12,740 nucleotides of DNA, taken from assembly GCA_031414955.1 (NCBI GenBank), contig JANOQV010000008.1:1-12740 (forward strand), given 5' to 3'. A program made the position numbers and the translations under genes. Below are positions 5,581 through 12,740 of this stretch, piece after piece. Every line of letters begins with the position of its first letter. The first letter of the stretch is position 1. Origin of the DNA: Pedosphaera sp. Its GTDB lineage: Bacteria; Verrucomicrobiota; Verrucomicrobiia; Limisphaerales; SIBH01. A model generated the notes under the pieces. That model was not told the origin of the DNA. It ran no database searches and saw nothing but the letters and a program-made list of their open reading frames with translations.

Positions 5581-8500
5581 TTATGGCACCACGGCCCTGT
5601 AAAACCGCCACGGTTGATTCGTCACCGGGCCGTCGCGGAAGCTCGTGGTTGCGTTTGTGGCCGTCAGATTTGTGAGCGTCGTCCAGGTCGTCAGGTTGGT
5701 GCTGGCTTGGAGGTCGTAGCTCCGTCCGGCCTGCCCCAGCAGATCGAAGCCAATCGCCCCGTCCGGCATGATTCGCACCGTCGTCAACAGCGGGGGACTC
5801 ACGCCGATGAAACCCACCGCCACGCGCGTGTCCGTTCCCTCCGGGCCGGTGACGGTGAGCGTGACCGTGTAACCACCTGCTTCGGCAAACACCGTCGTGG
5901 GGTTCTCCTCGGTGCTGTCAATCACGCCATCACTGTTAAAATCCCACGCCCAGTTCGTGACCCCGCCGGACGAAGTGTTTGTGAACGTCACGACCAGCGG
6001 CGGCGTGCCGCTCACCGGACTCGCGGTGAAGTTCGCCAGCGTGGGTGCGCTGTTGTCCACGACCTCCGCATACGGTCCCTCCGTGCCATCCGCCGTCACG
6101 GCCACCACGGCGTAAAACCAGTTCGTGCCCGTGCCGTCTGCCATCCACGGATGCAACGTGTCGTGGCTCAGGTTCGTCGTTGTGGCCAGCGGTTGATAAA
6201 GCGTCTCGTCATCACGCCGCGCGTAGATCCGGTAGCCCGCCACGTTGGTTCCCGGCGAAGCATCCCACGCCACGACGCTCAAGCCATTCGATGAGACGCA
6301 GCGGGGATTCGGTGGCGCGGGCGGGGCGTAGGTCAGCGTGAGCGTGTTGCTCGCCGCCGGATTGATCTGGAAGCTGAACGCAATGTCGTTCGTGCTTCCG
6401 ATCCAAGTGAGGTTCGTCACAACGATCTGGTTGGTCTGGTAAAATGCAATGTCCACCGACACCACCTCGCCAGGCATGGGCCGGAGGCTGGCCTGATACA
6501 GGCCCGCCGCCGGATCAGTCGCGGTGAACGTGGAACCGCCCGTGCCGATCTCCACCGTCGTTGCCGTCCAGTCATTGCTGAAGGAACCGGTCTTCGGCGA
6601 AACGCCCGCCCCGGCCAGCGCGGGGTTCAACAGCCACACTTGCGAACGCCCGCCCACGGAGACCAGCAACTGGCTCGTGGGTGAAACTAGATTCGACGGC
6701 GGCGACTTCCCGGCGTCGTCGGCGAGGCTGCTGATTACGCCCAAAAAGAATGCGACCTCGCGCGCAAACTCTTTCACCAAATGAGGGTGCTCGCCGGCTA
6801 GGGAAGAATCGTGGTCAAAGCGCGCCTGCACTGGATCCATAGTAGCTGAACTCGCGCGCACCGTGCCATCGCCGTCCGCCGTCAGCAGCAGGCTCACCGG
6901 TGTGCCGTGGGGGTAAAGTTGGTTCACCGTGGAACTCCTCGCCGAGGTCAGCCAGATTTGGCTGATCGTGGATCGGCTCGTGGAGTAAAAGACTTTGGAC
7001 AGCACCTTGTCCGGCATCGGGGTTGCGGAATAGCGGCCGAACGACCCCTGGTTTAACAGGTAGAGTGGGTTCGACTCTCGTTCGCGGTAGCTGGTTTCCG
7101 GCAGTTCCAACCGGAGATAAAACAGACTGCGGTCATAGACGGGCAGCAATTCCTCCAACTCCTTCATGACCGTCCGATAGAAATTCATCTTCCCTTCCTG
7201 CGTGGGGTGCGACGCATCCCACTTCTTGCCCGGATTCATCTTCTCGTAGTTGTAACGCGACGCGCCTTCGTAAAATCCCTCCGTGTCATGGCTCGTGTCC
7301 CCACCAAACCACAAGTAGTAGGCATTTGCTGAACCCTCATTGGGCGTTGCCACCATCGCCAGCTTGCCGATGTCGTTCGCGTATTCGCTGCTCTGGATGT
7401 AGGCGCGCGTCAGCAACCCTCCCGTGCTGTGCGCCACGATGTCCACCGTAGTGTGGTTTCCACACCGCTTCGCCTCGGCGATGATCGGCAGCAGATATTT
7501 GCGCCAGGCAATGTTCGCCTCGCCGACCCGGCCAATCGCGGGCATCCGCCAGTCGTACGGCGCTTCATATACTTCAAAGGAATCCTGGAGAAGCGCCTTG
7601 AGGGGCCTCCATCCCACTTCCTTAATCCTAATAGGGGAATCGTGCAGCCGCAGTTCCTCCGCTTTGGCCGGATATGTGGCTGGCAGGACTGGATATTTGA
7701 GCCACACGGCCTCGGATCGGCTCCCCATGATGCCCGGCACGAAAATCACAGCGGGCTTGTTTGGATCGCGCAGCGTCACCGTGAACGCGCTCCCGAGCCC
7801 ACTCGACAACCTGACCACGCTCGTCACGGGCGCTTCGTAATCACAGAAGCCTGCCTTGGTGACGCGCAGCATGAATGCACTGTCACTGGAAAAGCTAAAT
7901 CCGGCCTGTCCGAGCAAATCGCTGGTCTTCACCATCGGTATTCCGCTGGGTGCAGGCGTCAACGTCACGTTCGCACCACTCACAGCCGAGCCATCCTGCT
8001 TCTGCACCCGCACACTCAAAAAACCGCTGAACGGATTCCCGCTCTCGACTGAGAACCCCCCGCTCCGTCCATCCAAGATGTCGCTCGACGCCACAAGCAC
8101 CGTCTGCGCCCCGTCGGCGTCCATGCTCACCGTGCCGTTCCACACACCGTTCACCAGATTCGCGTAGCGGCGGCTGGGAGCGCCGCCTCCTTCGGCCCGC
8201 AGGCTCACCTGTCCGTTGAAGGCCGTCTGCACTGCGCCGCCGTTCTTCGCCGTGATGGTCACGGGGAAGGCCGCATTCACCGTCTGCGGCGACGGGATGG
8301 GGGAGAAAACAAAGCTGGTCACCGGCGCGGGTGCCGCCGCACTGCCCTGCTGTGTGACCGTCACCGTCTGCAAGGCGGGCGTGGCTCCCGGTGCGGAGAT
8401 GGTGATGGTGCCAGTGCGTGGACTGGTGCCGGGGTTCACGTCGCTCGACAGGATCAGACTGCTTCCATTCACCCCGGCCACCCCGCTCGCCGCCGATATG

Positions 8501-9384
8501 AAATGCAGCCAAGCAGCGCCGCTGATGGCCGCGCTCCAGGAGAGCGAACCACCGCCGCCATTCCGAATGGTGAACGTGCTGACACTGCCCGAGGCGAGGG
8601 CGGGACTGCTTCCGGGGCTGACCGCGAGCGCGGGCGGCCCAGTGCCGGCCACGGTCAGGCGACTGGCGGAGCGCGCGGTGGCGTTGGCGGGAGTGATCGC
8701 GTTCAGCACCCGATTCGGGTCCGCCCACACTCCCACGTAATAAGCGCCCGGCGGCGTGCCGGCGGGCACCGTGACCGAGCCGGAGTAGTTGAACACGCCA
8801 CCCGCCGCCAGCGCGGGCACGGCCACATCCAATGGCGACAACCCGGCGTCGCCCGCATTGATGATGGCGTCCGCGCTCAGGAGCAGCCGGGCCGTGGTGG
8901 CGGGCGTGCCCGCGGGGGTGCGGACACGGAAACTCAGATTCACGTTCTGCCCGGCATTGACACTCGCCGGTGTGAACTGAACCAACTCCACCATCCCAAA
9001 CCAACCGCTCGCACTGCGCGTATCAAAGGTGAACACGCCGCTCTCTGCCCAGCCGCCCAAGCCATCCCACGCCCGCGTGTCGAAGGTGAACACCCCCGAC
9101 TCCTGAACATGCGTCGCATTGGAATCGCGTGTGTCGAAGACAAACGTGGCTGATTCCGAAGTGTGGCTGGAAATGGAATCGCGCGTGTCCAGGAGAAACG
9201 CCCCTGACTCCGAAGCGTGGCTGGAGTTCGAGTCCCGCGTGTCCACCGTGAAGTCCGGCGACACATCATAATTCGCCGCCCGCCCGAGCACGCCGGTGAG
9301 GATGAGCGCGAGAACGAGGCCGTAACACCGGAGCGCGGCCTCCCAGGTCGCCGGACATTCCGTAGCGTGTGGCGTTCTTCTCAT
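5581..9384 (-). CDS. Large secreted multidomain protein (1267 aa): N-terminal repeats, CARDB-like, BACON-like and Ig-like domains, alpha/beta hydrolase (lipase/LCAT/PGAP1-like), Fn3, PKD and a Verrucomicrobia-type C-terminal domain
   Basis: Start chosen at ATG 9384, before a signal-like segment (GLVLALILTGVLGRAA). Hydrolase motifs: VIFVPGIMGS, YDWR, VDIVAHSTGG (7417-7434), ATPNEGS, DGDGTV, GEH. Fn3 motifs: WDAS..VAGYRIY..YAVVAV. PKD motif: FTNTSSGGVTNWAWDF. C-terminus: YDLQASTNLTTW...FYRAVVP. Confidence 0.85.
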   Translation of the reverse strand: MRRTPHATECPATWEAALRCYGLVLALILTGVLGRAANYDVSPDFTVDTRDSNSSHASESGAFLLDTRDSISSHTSESATFVFDTRDSNATHVQESGVFTFDTRAWDGLGGWAESGVFTFDTRSASGWFGMVELVQFTPASVNAGQNVNLSFRVRTPAGTPATTARLLLSADAIINAGDAGLSPLDVAVPALAAGGVFNYSGSVTVPAGTPPGAYYVGVWADPNRVLNAITPANATARSASRLTVAGTGPPALAVSPGSSPALASGSVSTFTIRNGGGGSLSWSAAISGAAWLHFISAASGVAGVNGSSLILSSDVNPGTSPRTGTITISAPGATPALQTVTVTQQGSAAAPAPVTSFVFSPIPSPQTVNAAFPVTITAKNGGAVQTAFNGQVSLRAEGGGAPSRRYANLVNGVWNGTVSMDADGAQTVLVASSDILDGRSGGFSVESGNPFSGFLSVRVQKQDGSAVSGANVTLTPAPSGIPMVKTSDLLGQAGFSFSSDSAFMLRVTKAGFCDYEAPVTSVVRLSSGLGSAFTVTLRDPNKPAVIFVPGIMGSRSEAVWLKYPVLPATYPAKAEELRLHDSPIRIKEVGWRPLKALLQDSFEVYEAPYDWRMPAIGRVGEANIAWRKYLLPIIAEAKRCGNHTTVDIVAHSTGGLLTRAYIQSSEYANDIGKLAMVATPNEGSANAYYLWFGGDTSHDTEGFYEGASRYNYEKMNPGKKWDASHPTQEGKMNFYRTVMKELEELLPVYDRSLFYLRLELPETSYRERESNPLYLLNQGSFGRYSATPMPDKVLSKVFYSTSRSTISQIWLTSARSSTVNQLYPHGTPVSLLLTADGDGTVRASSATMDPVQARFDHDSSLAGEHPHLVKEFAREVAFFLGVISSLADDAGKSPPSNLVSPTSQLLVSVGGRSQVWLLNPALAGAGVSPKTGSFSNDWTATTVEIGTGGSTFTATDPAAGLYQASLRPMPGEVVSVDIAFYQTNQIVVTNLTWIGSTNDIAFSFQINPAASNTLTLTYAPPAPPNPRCVSSNGLSVVAWDASPGTNVAGYRIYARRDDETLYQPLATTTNLSHDTLHPWMADGTGTNWFYAVVAVTADGTEGPYAEVVDNSAPTLANFTASPVSGTPPLVVTFTNTSSGGVTNWAWDFNSDGVIDSTEENPTTVFAEAGGYTVTLTVTGPEGTDTRVAVGFIGVSPPLLTTVRIMPDGAIGFDLLGQAGRSYDLQASTNLTTWTTLTNLTATNATTSFRDGPVTNQPWRFYRAVVP
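9016..9261 (-). repeat. Intragenic tandem repeats of 18-19 aa (ESGxFTFDTR-type), 5 DTR units
   Basis: DTR codons start at 9243, 9189, 9135, 9081 and 9024, giving spacings of 54, 54, 54 and 57 nt. Confidence 0.85.
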
Positions 9385-9408
9385 TTCTGGGCCTTGCCGA
9401 CGCCGGCG

Positions 9409-9438
9409 TTCATTACGGCTTCGGCGGTTCTTCGCGCA
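9409..9438. repeat. Direct repeat copy A (30 bp, 27/30 identical to 11923..11952)
   Basis: TTCATTACGGCTTCGGCGGTTCTTCGCGCA compared with TTCATTGCGGCTTGGGCGGTTCCTCGCGCA. Confidence 0.8.
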
Positions 9439-9598
9439 TCGCACACGACTCATCATGCTTCGCTTCATCGGCGAACGACACGAGCTTCCACCCCTGCGCG
9501 GCGAGCCGCGTCTCGCGCTCGCGTGCCGCCACGGCCATCGCGTGGATGTCGTGATTGCGCGCGCGCGCGATTTCTTCGAGGATCGGGTTCTTATTCAT
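9413..9598 (-). CDS. Small hypothetical protein (61 aa), resembles small antitoxin-like partners of PIN toxins
   Basis: ATG at 9598 (MNKNPILEEIARAR...). It fills the gap between the BrnA-like gene and the large gene, and its C-terminus REEPPKP is shared with 11924..12145. The family assignment is an inference. Confidence 0.55.
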   Translation of the reverse strand: MNKNPILEEIARARNHDIHAMAVAARERETRLAAQGWKLVSFADEAKHDESCAMREEPPKP

Positions 9599-9622: not shown

Positions 9623-9877
9623 TCACGCCCCGACCAGCGCATGGGCGCGGAGAATGCGGCGCATCAGCTTGGCCGGGGTTTCGCCTCGCAGTTTCGCCTC
9701 GCGGCGGTAGTAGTCCAGGCTCACGGGCTCAAGTTCGACCGTCACCTTCACCGTCCTCAGTTCACGGCGCACCTGTGCCGGCGCGGGCAGGAAATCCAGC
9801 CGCACGGGTGGCCCCATCTCGCCGATGGGTTCGCCGTTGATCTCGGTCATGTCAGCGTGTCGCGTTTTGCTTTTCAT
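9623..9877 (-). CDS. BrnA/CopG-like ribbon-helix-helix antitoxin (84 aa)
   Basis: ATG 9877 overlaps the brnT 3' end by 26 nt. The pattern DFLPAP...TVKVTVEL..VSLDYYRREA......KLMRRIL is typical of RHH antitoxins paired with BrnT. Confidence 0.78.
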   Translation of the reverse strand: MKSKTRHADMTEINGEPIGEMGPPVRLDFLPAPAQVRRELRTVKVTVELEPVSLDYYRREAKLRGETPAKLMRRILRAHALVGA

Positions 9878-10142
9878 AAAGTTGTCTGCCCTTCCGCCAC
9901 CAGCCCGCGCCGATGATGCGGACGCGGCCCTGGCGCTCGGTGAAGCGCACGGTAAGAATATTCCCATCCACGCGCCCCAGGCAATGCCAGCGTGGCTCCC
10001 TGCCACTGTGCCCGAGATCGGGCAGGATGACGCGATCCGCATCGGCAAAGGCGGCGACGGCCTCCATGAAACTCACGCCGTGCTTGGCGCGGTTGGAGGC
10101 CTCCTTCGCGTCATCCCACTCAAAATGTTCGCCAAGCTTCAT
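9852..10142 (-). CDS. brnT: BrnT-family (DUF497) ribonuclease toxin
   Basis: FEWDDAKEASNRAKHGVSFMEA, HS.REPRW..LG and ILTVRFTER..RVRIIGA. Confidence 0.92.
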   Translation of the reverse strand: MKLGEHFEWDDAKEASNRAKHGVSFMEAVAAFADADRVILPDLGHSGREPRWHCLGRVDGNILTVRFTERQGRVRIIGAGWWRKGRQLYEKQNATR

Positions 10143-10356
10143 GCCGGAGTTGCCGACGTTTGGAATGGTGGCGCGAGGACGTTCGCCACGGCCTGCGCCG
10201 CCGCTACCAGCCCCCGCGCCACTTCCTTATTCGTTCCCCGCCGCGCCGCGGCGGAAAACAGGCTGCATCCGGTGGGCTTCCGTCTGGGACACCGCGCGGG
10301 TCCGTAAACCCGCGCGCTCCGCCCGTGGTGACCGGCGAACCGGCTCCCCCTCGAAT
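10143..10356 (-). ncRNA. Structured spacer downstream of TR (predicted 3' part of the DGR RNA)
   Basis: Hairpins at 10331-10344 (UUCG loop), 10293-10316 (9-bp stem, UUACGG loop), 10233-10259 and 10168-10222 (13-bp stem enclosing UGGUAGC...CGAAC). The G-U pairs form only on the minus-strand RNA. Confidence 0.6.
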
Positions 10357-10478
10357 CCCCCTCACACATCGGAACCCATAGTTGTTGTTGGCGTTGCCTG
10401 GTGTGTTGTTGTTGCGCTGCGCGCACCGCAGGTTGGTCGTGGTATCGCCCCACGAACCGCCCCGCAGCACACGATTGC
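10357..10478 (-). repeat. DGR template repeat (TR) matching an FGE-sulfatase/CLec-fold C-terminus
   Basis: The minus strand reads NRVLRGGSWGDTTTNLRCAQRNNNTPGNANNNYGFRCVRG. It has 9 AAY codons at variable positions and A-free codons for RVLRGGSWG, LRCA and GF. The boundaries are approximate because no VR is present to align. Confidence 0.88.
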
Positions 10479-11548
10479 TCAGTTTCCGGTCGCACCCAAA
10501 GTTTCACGCAATTCCTTTTTCACCTGGTCAATCAAGGCCGTGGTGTCCGCCTGCGCCGCATGGCCCCGCCAACTGTTCCAGCGCGTGAGCAACGACTCTT
10601 TCGACAGCTCCCCGCGTTTGTATTGCTGCACGTTCCAGCGCAGTCGCCGCCGGGCCGAAGCCACGTTGGCCCGGCACAGCCGCCGCCGTCCGGGCCACAC
10701 GCGCTGGCCCAGGAACGTGATCCCGCTCCGCGTCGGGAACGTCCGCGACTTGCGTTCGTTCAGCCGCAACCGGCACTCGGCCAGCCTCTCCACAATGGCC
10801 GCGCGCCACTCCGCCAGTTGCGCGTTACTCGCTCCGAACAGGAGGAAATCATCCACGTAGCGCACGTAGCCGGGGCAGCCCAGTTCCTCCTTCACCCAAT
10901 GATCAAACGCATCCAGGTAGATGCTCCCGAACCACTGGCTCGTCATGTTGCCGATGGGCAGGCCGACCCGGCGCGCGCCCGCCTCCGCCAGATCGTCCCC
11001 CGGAAACACATTGCACACCGCCTCCTGCCGGTTGCTGCCGTCCACGATCCGCTCCAGCAGCCAGAGCGTGGGCGGGCAGCAGATGGTCCGGCGCAACGCG
11101 GTCTTCAACACCGCGTGATCCATGCTCGGAAAATATTTCCGCACATCGCATTTCAGTACGCAGGGAAACTGGCGGCAGAATTCCTGGCCGCGCCGGATCG
11201 CGGCGTGTGTGCCCTTCCTTCCCGGTTCGAGTAAAGGTCGGAAATCATCCGGCGCTCAAACAGCGGCATGACCACCTGGCAGAGCGCGTGGTGCACCACC
11301 CGGTCGCGGAAGGGCGCGGCGCTGATCATCCGGGGCTTGGGCCGGGTGATCATCTTCTCCCGGTAGGCCCCCGGCGTGTAGGTCTGGTCCAGCAGTTCGC
11401 GCCGCAGCCGCAACACCTCCGCCTCCACGTTCGTCCGAAAGTTGCCCACGCCGGCTTGCAGACGCTTGCCCCGTTCGGCCCGGCGGACGGCCCACCAGAG
11501 GTTCTCGAACGAGGTGATTTCCTCCCAAAGATGGTTATGCGTCTTCAT
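10479..11548 (-). pseudogene. DGR reverse transcriptase (about 356 aa if repaired), split by a one-base frameshift near 11216-11217
   Basis: The 5' part (11153..11548) has PKPRMISAAPFRDRVVHHAL. The 3' frame, open from 11216, gives KGTHAAI...LKCDVRKYFPSMDH, GLPIGNMTSQ, YVRYVDDF (YVDD at 10848-10859) and ITFLG. One extra base restores NREGKGTH. This could be a sequencing error. Confidence 0.9.
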
Positions 11549-11898
11549 CGCGCCGCTCCGGTGCTGGCCGCGCTTTTCAGCCAGCCGCCCACCATCCGGC
11601 CCACTTCATCCAGCTTCTCGGAGGCCACGGCGTAAGCCTGGTTGCTGAAGTAGCGCAGCGCGTGGGCCAGCCGGATCAGACGGCGTGTGATCTCCAGCGT
11701 CATGTTCGCCTCGAGCAGGTGGGGGCGCTTCTCCCGGCTGTAGTAGGCCCGCAGGCAGTTCTCCTGCACCTCCAGCAGCTTCACTTCAATCCGGTCTCCC
11801 AGCACAAATTTCTGATCGCGCGGAAACTTGCCCAGTTGCGGAATCACGTAAAGCAACAGGTCGTGCAGCTTGGTCAGGATGTTGTCGGCTTCGGCCAT
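11545..11898 (-). CDS. avd: DGR accessory variability determinant (Avd, four-helix bundle)
   Basis: 117 aa with KFPRDQKFVLGDRIE, LRLAHAL-like IRLAHALRYFS and EVGRMVGGWLK. Its stop overlaps the RT start (ATGA at 11545-11548). Confidence 0.92.
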   Translation of the reverse strand: MAEADNILTKLHDLLLYVIPQLGKFPRDQKFVLGDRIEVKLLEVQENCLRAYYSREKRPHLLEANMTLEITRRLIRLAHALRYFSNQAYAVASEKLDEVGRMVGGWLKSAASTGAAR

Positions 11899-11922: not shown

Positions 11923-11952
11923 TTCATTGCGGCTTGGGCGGTTCCTCGCGCA
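11923..11952. repeat. Direct repeat copy B (27/30 identical to 9409..9438)
   Basis: Direct comparison; it covers the last codons and stop of 11924..12145. Confidence 0.8.
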
Positions 11953-12145
11953 GCCGTGCCGTGGCGTATCGGCCTTCCGTCTGTGCCAGCGTGCGCCACC
12001 AGAGCGCCAGCGGTGACGTGCTGGTTTCCTTCCAGGCCTCGCACCGGCGTCGCGCCTCCTCGCGCCCCAGCCGCGCCTCCTCCTCCGCCATAGCCCGCTG
12101 GATGCCGGCCTTCATTTCAACACAGTCAAAAGGCTTTGTTTTCAT
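11924..12145 (-). CDS. Small protein (73 aa), putative antitoxin partner of the upstream PIN protein
   Basis: Starts 3 nt after the PIN stop. The KPFDCVEMK..IQ N-terminus resembles small ORFs found downstream of this PIN subfamily (inference). Confidence 0.7.
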   Translation of the reverse strand: MKTKPFDCVEMKAGIQRAMAEEEARLGREEARRRCEAWKETSTSPLALWWRTLAQTEGRYATARLREEPPKPQ

Positions 12146-12148
12146 GGT

Positions 12149-12601
12149 TCAGATTATTTCCAACGGTGAGCGGATGTCCACCAGACGGTAGCCCTCGCGC
12201 AGGTTCACCGCATTGAACAGCCGGATTTTGTCGTAGTGGACGATGTGCTTGAAGTTCCAGCTCGCGATCACATCCGCCCCCGCCACGGTCGCCAGCGCCA
12301 CATGGAGCGCATCGTTCAGTTGCGCCGGGCCGACGATGGCGGCGGCGGCGTAACAGCCTTGCAAGGCCCGGGCCTCTTCCGTCGCGGAGACATACTCCGC
12401 GCAGTCCGGCGGCAGTGCGGCCAGCCGGGCCTGCACCGCCTCCGGTGCCCGCGCCAGTTCCAGCAGCAGCAGCTCGGAGACCAGCAGCCGAATATGCCCG
12501 CTCCGCGCCTGCGCCAGCAGTTCACGGCTCGCCTCGGCGAACTCCTCATCCTCACAGCCGCCCACCACGGATGTATCAACGTAGATGCGCGGTGTTTTCA
12601 T
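12149..12601 (-). CDS. PIN-domain (VapC-like) ribonuclease
   Basis: IYVDTSV, ELLLLEL, DALHVALAT and SWNFKHIV...SPLEII; 150 aa. Confidence 0.9.
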   Translation of the reverse strand: MKTPRIYVDTSVVGGCEDEEFAEASRELLAQARSGHIRLLVSELLLLELARAPEAVQARLAALPPDCAEYVSATEEARALQGCYAAAAIVGPAQLNDALHVALATVAGADVIASWNFKHIVHYDKIRLFNAVNLREGYRLVDIRSPLEII

Positions 12602-12644: not shown

Positions 12645-12740
12645 AGGGCGCGTCACTCCATGCGCGCCGTCAGCCGATTTGATATCCGAGACCTCAAATT
12701 GCAAATGCCGCCCGACGGCGCGCACGGAGTGACGCGCCCT
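12645..12740. repeat. REP/REPIN-like inverted repeat (27-bp arms, 26/27 complementary), reaching the window edge
   Basis: AGGGCGCGTCACTCCATGCGCGCCGTC (12645-12671) pairs with GACGGCGCGCACGGAGTGACGCGCCCT (12714-12740) around a 42-nt spacer. Confidence 0.8.

Follow-up and report, generated by a model that had tools for sequence, protein, structure and literature searches.

The window, by which we mean the whole stretch of DNA that was analysed (12,740 nt), is the whole of contig C8 of a 6.55 Mb genome (313 contigs, 95.9% complete), and the contig ends at 12740. Its right-hand part carries, in order on the minus strand, a PIN-domain gene with a 73-aa partner (12601-11924), the accessory gene avd, a reverse transcriptase (RT) gene, a template repeat (TR), about 185 nt of non-coding sequence, and brnT with a small partner (Table 1). 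We read avd, RT and TR as the core of a diversity-generating retroelement (DGR), a type of cassette that introduces mutations into one particular gene; the variable repeat (VR) copied from this TR lies at the end of a gene on a second contig, C91.

Table 1 Features of the DGR, its target gene and its neighbours
Feature	Position	Strand	Details
Small ORF after brnT	9623..9880	-	no family match
brnT toxin gene	9852..10142	-	PF04365; directly downstream of the DGR RNA
Structured spacer RNA downstream of TR	10170..10355	-	predicted template:primer duplex, hairpin, stem-loop then adenines, terminal stem
Template repeat (TR), 126 nt	10356..10481	-	31 adenines, 28 in codon positions 1-2; partner VR C91:17793-17918
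Eroded 5′ part of TR	10441..10456	-	GGC GAT ACC where relatives have AAC AAC AAC; identical to VR
Last RT codons, predicted upstream strand of the duplex closing the DGR RNA	10486..10497	-	pairs with 10260-10272; RNAalifold, 16 loci
DGR RT, remainder past the 1-nt deletion	10479..11216	-	KGTH...KCD...LPIGNMTSQ...YVDD; PF00078
DGR RT, codons 1-111	11217..11548	-	frame then continues out of register, stopping at 11153-11155
avd accessory gene, 117 aa	11545..11898	-	Pfam PF22296 (bAvd), NCBIfam NF033474 (DivGenRetAVD)
73-aa partner of PIN gene	11924..12145	-	no family; antitoxin by position only
PIN-domain gene	12149..12601	-	PF01850; upstream of avd
Inverted repeat, 32-nt arms	12645..12740	.	C8 ends in the repeat; 11 further look-alike arms in 8 other contigs
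Target gene, 393 aa	C91:16742-17923	+	PF03781 (FGE-sulfatase domain), 185 bits; VR at 3′ end

Identity and setting of the element

The avd product scored 74.4 bits against the Pfam bAvd model (cut-off 40) and 100.2 bits against DivGenRetAVD (cut-off 80), and was the single match in a genome-wide search. The best PDB match of the RT was chain A of 8ub7 (84.9 bits, E 5e-23), which we take to be the Bordetella bRT, and the RT has the motifs LPIGNMTSQ, with its SQ dipeptide, and YVDD. A group II intron identity was rejected, since the best group II maturase reached only 28.6 bits, as against 84.9 for 8ub7, and TIGR04416 only 72 bits against a cut-off of 300; the retron and DRT model sets both scored far below their cut-offs. 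In a quick tree of 77 rows, built with no non-DGR outgroup and omitting 11 of 87 loci as broken or cut, the RT fell in a 15-row clade with support of 100, with Chloroflexota, Planctomycetota, Cyanobacteriota, Thiotrichaceae, Acidobacteriota and Bacteroidota as neighbours. Motifs, PDB match, model scores and the TR/VR pairs of relatives together support an RT of the DGR class. All of the nearest RT relatives that carry a name belong to Verrucomicrobiota, and the host is likely to belong there as well. No second intact copy of RT or avd was found in the genome, at its 95.9% completeness.

An earlier note on this DNA, made from the sequence alone, had called the element a DGR, and the adenine-only TR/VR mismatches described below, avd and the DGR-class RT bear this out; the grouping with group II introns or retrons that it had named as fatal to the call is contradicted by the 8ub7 match and the low model scores. 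The layout that it described also holds: avd overlaps the RT gene through ATGA (RT start at 11548-11545), so that a TR has no room between them, and Pfam matches place the PIN module upstream of avd and brnT downstream. The RT stop codon occupies 10481-10479 and TR/VR identity begins at 10481, so that the TR begins on the stop codon itself. One part of the anatomy was missed, namely that a 1-nt deletion splits the RT into two frames.

The element is a chromosomal, cellular DGR and not a phage one. Its neighbours are argG-, nusB-, ftsY-, cinA- and ferredoxin-like genes, named from their translations, and PHP and oxidoreductase genes. A phage location was rejected given these neighbours and a best viral RT of 42% identity among the best 80 of 181 matches. 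We regard brnT as a passenger and no part of the DGR, and the ORF that follows it as likely to be its antitoxin. The PIN gene is found at this position in none of the 16 close relatives. PIN genes also lie behind the TR in two related loci (L040 and L200), and toxin-antitoxin-type genes seem to collect around this DGR.

Further features of C8 are recorded here as observations. Two ORFs of no family, at 9413-9598 (-) and 11924-12145 (-), share a REEPPKP C-terminus; the former comes after the brnT pair and the latter after the PIN gene. A large ORF at 5581-9468 (-), of up to 1295 aa, has BACON, carboxypeptidase-regulatory-like, lipase/LCAT-like and PKD domains, with short FTxDTR repeats near its start, and is likely secreted. 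Positions 1-141, at the left end of C8, are a repeat that recurs at or near the ends of contigs C311, C124 and C150. The inverted repeat at the right end is presumably REP-like.

The template repeat, its target and the position of the target

A BLASTN search of the genome with the TR region gave one match with only adenine differences, at C91:17793-17920. Over the 126 nt, all 12 mismatches between TR and VR fall at TR adenines (6 to G, 4 to T and 2 to C), and all 95 non-A sites are equal; the chance of 12 out of 12 falling at adenines is about 5e-8 if mismatches are random. When the 313 contigs were all scanned with adenines masked, no site but the TR itself and that on C91 exceeded 62% over the whole TR. 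Scans of the genome with half-TRs found no second target, the next best sites reaching 69% (3′ 60 nt) and 63% (5′ 60 nt). Given this TR/VR pair and the single match on C91, we conclude that the element is no orphan and has one target. The earlier note had found no second copy of the RGGSW...GFRC segment in the window, and there is none. It had placed the target, an FGE-sulfatase/CLec gene, outside the window, and the BLASTN search that it proposed led to a VR, with adenine-only mismatches, ending just such a gene on C91. Its "one or more" targets narrows to one VR on the scan of 313 contigs, and the orphan element that it had allowed for falls away.

The target protein matches formylglycine-generating enzymes, and Treponema TvpA (2y3c) was second among 24 PDB matches (E 2.5e-26). 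Its N-terminal region belongs to no Pfam family; the leader resembles a signal peptide and has no lipobox, both read by eye. The target is predicted to be a secreted binding protein. The VR changes 10 residues within the last 41 of the protein, and we assume that these belong to what is the ligand-binding face of CLec-fold proteins.

The 5′ part of the TR departs from that of its relatives. The codons after TGG read GGC GAT ACC, the same as in the VR. Among related TRs the first two codons are AAY AAY in 31 of 31, and the third is AAY in 30 (pattern match, 36 loci scanned). The window TR lacks 5 of 28 near-invariant adenines, as against 0-2 lost in 15 relatives, and departs at 4 of 63 conserved non-A columns. 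Four of the five lost adenines lie within 8 nt, inside a 41-nt tract over which TR and VR are identical. Among the matches listed, a contig of metagenome run X4 that is 91% identical (52 differences over 589 nt) keeps AAC AAC. We tentatively consider a back-copy from target to template, by gene conversion from the VR or by cDNA homing into the TR, which would have overwritten the 5′ part of the TR; we think it possible, though on the unlikely side. Such a back-copy would explain the clustering of the lost adenines, and by turning AAC AAC AAC into GGC GAT ACC would have locked in the residues G-D-T picked by selection. Against it, there is one case only, and one of the changes (C to T, in GAT) is not at an adenine. 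Plain point mutation followed by normal homing would explain the same identity of TR and VR, and is a live alternative. If back-copying did occur, DGR templates would be editable by their own targets, which would offer a route to narrowing and re-tuning diversity; the possibility may be of interest to DGR specialists.

The contig ends suggest where the target lies relative to the cassette. C91 ends 48 nt past the stop codon of the target, and these 48 nt take in a T-rich stretch and part of a GC-rich hairpin, namely its first arm and its loop. TR and VR diverge after a G/C-rich end (the IMH/IMH* region), and the hairpin beyond it is only partly assembled; the same post-VR hairpin is whole in two related loci, L027 and L031 (alignment scores 41 and 40 of 46). 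A hairpin behind the VR is a known target-recognition element, according to the part of PMC3240598 available to us. C8, in turn, ends 842 nt upstream of avd, in the 32-bp inverted repeat. Placing C91 forward and C8 reversed gives target, hairpin, gap, inverted repeat, PIN pair, avd, RT and TR.

This order agrees with that of the relatives. In all 16 closest genome loci, all Verrucomicrobiota, an orthologous target lies in cis, 60-784 nt upstream of avd, and a TR/VR pair was detected behind the RT in 15 of them, the sixteenth (L032) being cut there. Among the 20 closest of 80 metagenome loci, all 12 informative ones have the target in cis, 69-132 nt upstream of avd; the other 8 hold no more than 195 nt upstream of avd. 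Read depths for C8 and C91 are similar, at 15.6 and 17.8 versus 15.8 and 15.4 in run X1 and 9.7-10 versus 9.7 and 8.5 in run X2. Since the relatives are all cis and the contig ends and their orientation fit a join, we consider it likely that the target adjoins the right end of C8, in cis. The trans action that the earlier note had thought likely is thus disfavoured, and the case that it had set against itself, an ordinary cis DGR with inserted toxin-antitoxin genes, becomes the best reading, except that the VR gene was found on C91 and not past 12740.

Several observations bear on the join without deciding it. No bridge between C91 and C8 was found in contigs, the contigs of X1 and X2 also stopping 2-3 nt past 12740; an exact search of JGI metagenomes with the right-end loop gave 0 matches; and none of 626 contig ends begins with the second hairpin arm. 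A remote target, too, would have its contig cut short by such a hairpin, and the position at a contig end is therefore not independent proof of cis. Synteny gives no support for the join, since gene order is shuffled among same-genus genomes: cinA (on C91) and ftsY (on C8) are on different contigs in 9 of 9 genomes with both found, and their neighbours are shuffled. In L034 and L040 a hairpin followed by a REP-like arm was seen by eye; a pattern search gave no row, and we give this no weight.

The competing reading is a split cassette, with the C91 target lying far from avd-RT-TR, which worked on it in trans. In its favour, no contig or read was found to bridge C91 and C8, and a join would leave at least 890 nt, with the PIN pair and inverted repeat, between target and avd, a spacing that exceeds that in all 28 informative relatives; L027, however, whose RT is the closest (78%), has a similar insertion, a nucleotidyltransferase-HEPN pair at 1613-2336 in the target-avd gap. 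By its body the target is closest to L037 (61%, versus 53% to L027), unlike the RT, which is nearest to L027; the post-VR flank, like the RT, is nearest to L027. Non-adjacent targets occur in 45 of 372 DGRs, by the available text of PMC5758913. Set against this are the 28 of 28 informative relatives in cis, and two contigs that both end where the join would be, in the right orientation. We therefore judge a remote target unlikely, and retain the cis arrangement.

The genome holds a second DGR, at C267:10290-13278 (L002:3291-6279), and its order, target-HRDC-RT-TR, with the accessory gene between target and RT, also speaks for the cis arrangement. It has an FGE-sulfatase target and an intact RT that is the only other RT in the genome. 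In this DGR, 21 of 22 TR/VR mismatches are at A, and a PIN gene lies upstream of the target. A site at C12:7498-7636 (-), the 3′ end of a long FGE-sulfatase gene, equals the C267 TR at 84 of 99 non-A sites and has many A-site differences; it is probably either a remote target that has lapsed or one belonging to a related DGR that is missing. Another genome of the same order (G016) has five DGR-type RTs, of Avd and HRDC types (L004, L007, L009, L010 and L011).

The reverse transcriptase frameshift

The RT gene lies in two frames. One nucleotide is deleted between 11217 and 11216, in the codons for G-K of the R-x-G-K-G-T-H motif, and the gap is present in 1 of 11 aligned RTs, that of the window alone versus 10 relatives. 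An uninterrupted RT frame is thus absent: the first frame stops after 131 aa, ahead of the KCD, GNMTSQ and YVDD motifs, and the first ATG, GTG or TTG of the second frame is just past the D of KCD. The two runs bearing C8, X1 and X2, are freshwater sediment metagenomes from a single study (in runs X3-X10 only a small share was present, which is not evidence of habitat). Their contigs, at depths of 17.8 (X1) and 9.7 (X2), span the deletion with 0 other letters and 0 gaps; these data are contigs, from which rare alleles are dropped, and both runs may be the source of the assembly. Since the two agree, the deletion is the majority state in the sample, and an assembly error is unlikely, with the same proviso that the runs may be the source samples.

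Apart from the break the RT is intact, differing at 1 of 144 residues invariant in 14 relatives. This conservation, together with the lack of TR/VR drift at non-A sites, points to a recent loss. We conclude from the sequence that the element is probably inactive today, and recently dead. The statement in the earlier note that the DGR "diversifies" its target is therefore doubtful in the present tense, although the target gene itself has been identified.

Among 80 related loci, the RT is intact in one frame in 71; 6 are broken and 3 more are cut by contig ends. The 6 broken RTs among the 80 break at at least 5 different places. Of the 16 closest genome loci, 2 have a broken RT, as do 4 of the 20 from metagenomes; some of these breaks may be sequencing errors. 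A conserved programmed frameshift was rejected, since the RT is in one frame in 71 of 80 relatives and a 1-nt loss in this motif is shared by L065 alone. Frameshifted or stopped RTs beside TR/VR pairs with only A-changes have been read as very recent inactivation (PMC3521204, partial text), and one survey set aside more than half of its candidate DGRs because they were broken or incomplete (PMC5758913, partial text).

Breaks in distant relatives are worth recording separately. R-x-G-K-G-T-H is also broken in two distant RTs, by the 1-nt loss in L065 (L065:7990-8010) and at L072:5126-5528, where the break is a 400-nt insertion of repeated DNA, partly N. The RT genes at L194:5668-6735, L195:3294-4361 and L196:5668-6735 are identical but for one base, codon 180 being CAG in L194 and TAG in L195 and L196. 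L194 and L196 have a common VR and that of L195 is different, so the stop allele occurs with two VRs; this may be an on/off polymorphism or the consensus of mixed populations.

The element might still be active if ribosomes slip by -1 in the purine run GAA GGA AGG, or if a minority of cells keeps an intact RT. A -1 shift at the site would restore N-R-E-G-K-G-T-H, the motif of the clade, but a -1 slip would "repair" a 1-nt deletion anywhere, and the site, as read from the sequence, is not an X XXY YYZ heptamer. In favour of activity, avd, the spacer RNA and the RT residues are otherwise intact, and the motif has also lost 1 nt in L065; against it, most related RTs (71 of 80) are in one frame, and the 6 broken ones are broken at at least 5 places. 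No X1 or X2 contig with the VR letters of the assembly covers L001:5835-5886, as a variable VR could cause, but a hole in filtered contigs proves nothing, and a dead-end branch at a hairpin is easily clipped. Continued activity of the C8 RT thus seems to us improbable. It is still more improbable that the C267 RT, of HRDC type, copies the C8 TR in trans with the C8 Avd and so keeps the target diversified: it is the sole other RT, lies in one frame, and would find the C8 avd and RNA intact, and degenerate loci stand beside complete ones in Thiohalocapsa (PMC10907252, partial text), but the two RTs are 36-40% identical and in separate clades, the DGR RNA wraps its own RT closely (10.1101/2023.10.23.563531, partial text), and the degenerate Thiohalocapsa loci share a class with a complete one (again PMC10907252). 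Recent inactivation remains our preferred reading.

The DGR RNA and comparison with known systems

The RNA around the TR is predicted to form two long-range duplexes, one between the RT end (10497-10486) and the spacer (10272-10260) and an adjoining one between the TR end and the spacer. Over 16 loci and 55 pairs, 94.4% of cells are paired and 36 pairs show a change on both sides; none of 500 shuffles did as well, and slid controls gave 41-52% paired, the structure having been predicted on the same alignment as was used for the test. Both-side changes occur in 4 of 10 pairs of the RT-end duplex and 3 of 7 of the other long-range helix, fewer than in the local stems. The Bordetella RNA has a template:primer duplex, a cPRT stop duplex, a stem-loop and A-minor adenines, as described in the available part of 10.1101/2023.10.23.563531; the predicted fold matches this description, and by analogy the mechanism would be the standard one. 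In several relatives (for example L026:8700-8760) the RT frame lacks a stop at the position of the window's TGA and continues into the TR. The Verrucomicrobiota clade, with a covarying RNA whose upstream strand lies in the coding end of the RT, should be handy for testing the generality of the Bordetella fold.

Taken together, C8 carries a chromosomal avd-RT-TR DGR whose single target, on C91, probably lies immediately upstream of the right edge of the window, and which, with its RT frameshifted, is likely inactive today. By analogy with the Bordetella element, an RNA spanning the last RT codons and the TR and reaching into the structured spacer would have folded on RT and Avd and primed itself. 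It would have been copied with errors at adenines, and the cDNA would have replaced the last 126 nt of the target, homing being guided by the G/C-rich end and the hairpin behind the VR. The PIN toxin-antitoxin-type pair and the inverted repeat would later have entered the gap between target and avd. The recent loss of 1 nt would have truncated the RT ahead of its catalytic motifs and frozen the variant now seen.

Published accounts already cover the layout, nested passengers, non-adjacent targets and RTs that broke recently. A literature search for a Verrucomicrobia DGR with FGE-sulfatase gave no match, which does not show the point to be unpublished; degenerate DGR loci, and Verrucomicrobiota with divergent RTs, are described in the part of PMC10907252 available to us. 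Where a contig breaks at the post-VR hairpin, a cis DGR takes on the look of an orphan or trans element, and surveys that require a VR beside the RT miss such cases (PMC8144416, partial text).

The earlier note had thought the layout uncommon. It is architecture B2, within family B (253 of 372 DGRs), as far as the accessible text of PMC5758913 goes, and is fixed in the clade; the order avd, RT, TR without a further accessory gene is that of B2, and is found too in loci of Planctomycetota, Acidobacteriota and Cyanobacteriota (for example L046, L057, L060, L094 and L097). The same text reports that unrelated ORFs are found between target and core whatever the architecture, as "X" variants. The C8 element resembles B2 in having avd-RT-TR on one strand, a single CLec/FGE-sulfatase target and nested ORFs; it differs in its frameshifted RT, which would have kept it out of the putatively functional set of that survey.

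The closest systems are the target-avd-RT-TR elements of Verrucomicrobiota (L026-L041 and L186-L204), which have RTs 63-78% identical, the same layout, the same spacer RNA and an orthologous target (51-61% identical). C8 differs from them in the PIN pair and inverted repeat upstream of avd, the RT deletion and the eroded TR codons. With Treponema denticola TvpA it shares the target match to 2y3c and a VR at the C-terminal RGGSW...GFRC segment, but it has Avd and no HRDC, one target rather than several remote ones, and no lipobox that we could see. The inactivated-RT DGRs in the available text of PMC3521204 likewise have a broken RT beside an A-only TR/VR pair, with no substantive difference from C8. 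With the Bordetella BPP-1 element (mtd-avd-TR-brt), C8 has in common Avd, RT and adenine-specific TR/VR differences, a hairpin after the VR (PMC3240598, partial text), and a structured spacer in which a template:primer duplex and a duplex with sequence upstream of the TR are followed by a stem-loop and adenines (10.1101/2023.10.23.563531, partial text). Unlike BPP-1, C8 has its TR behind the RT and draws the upstream strand of its RNA from the last RT codons rather than the last avd codons, and it is a cellular element, not a phage one, with an FGE-type target.
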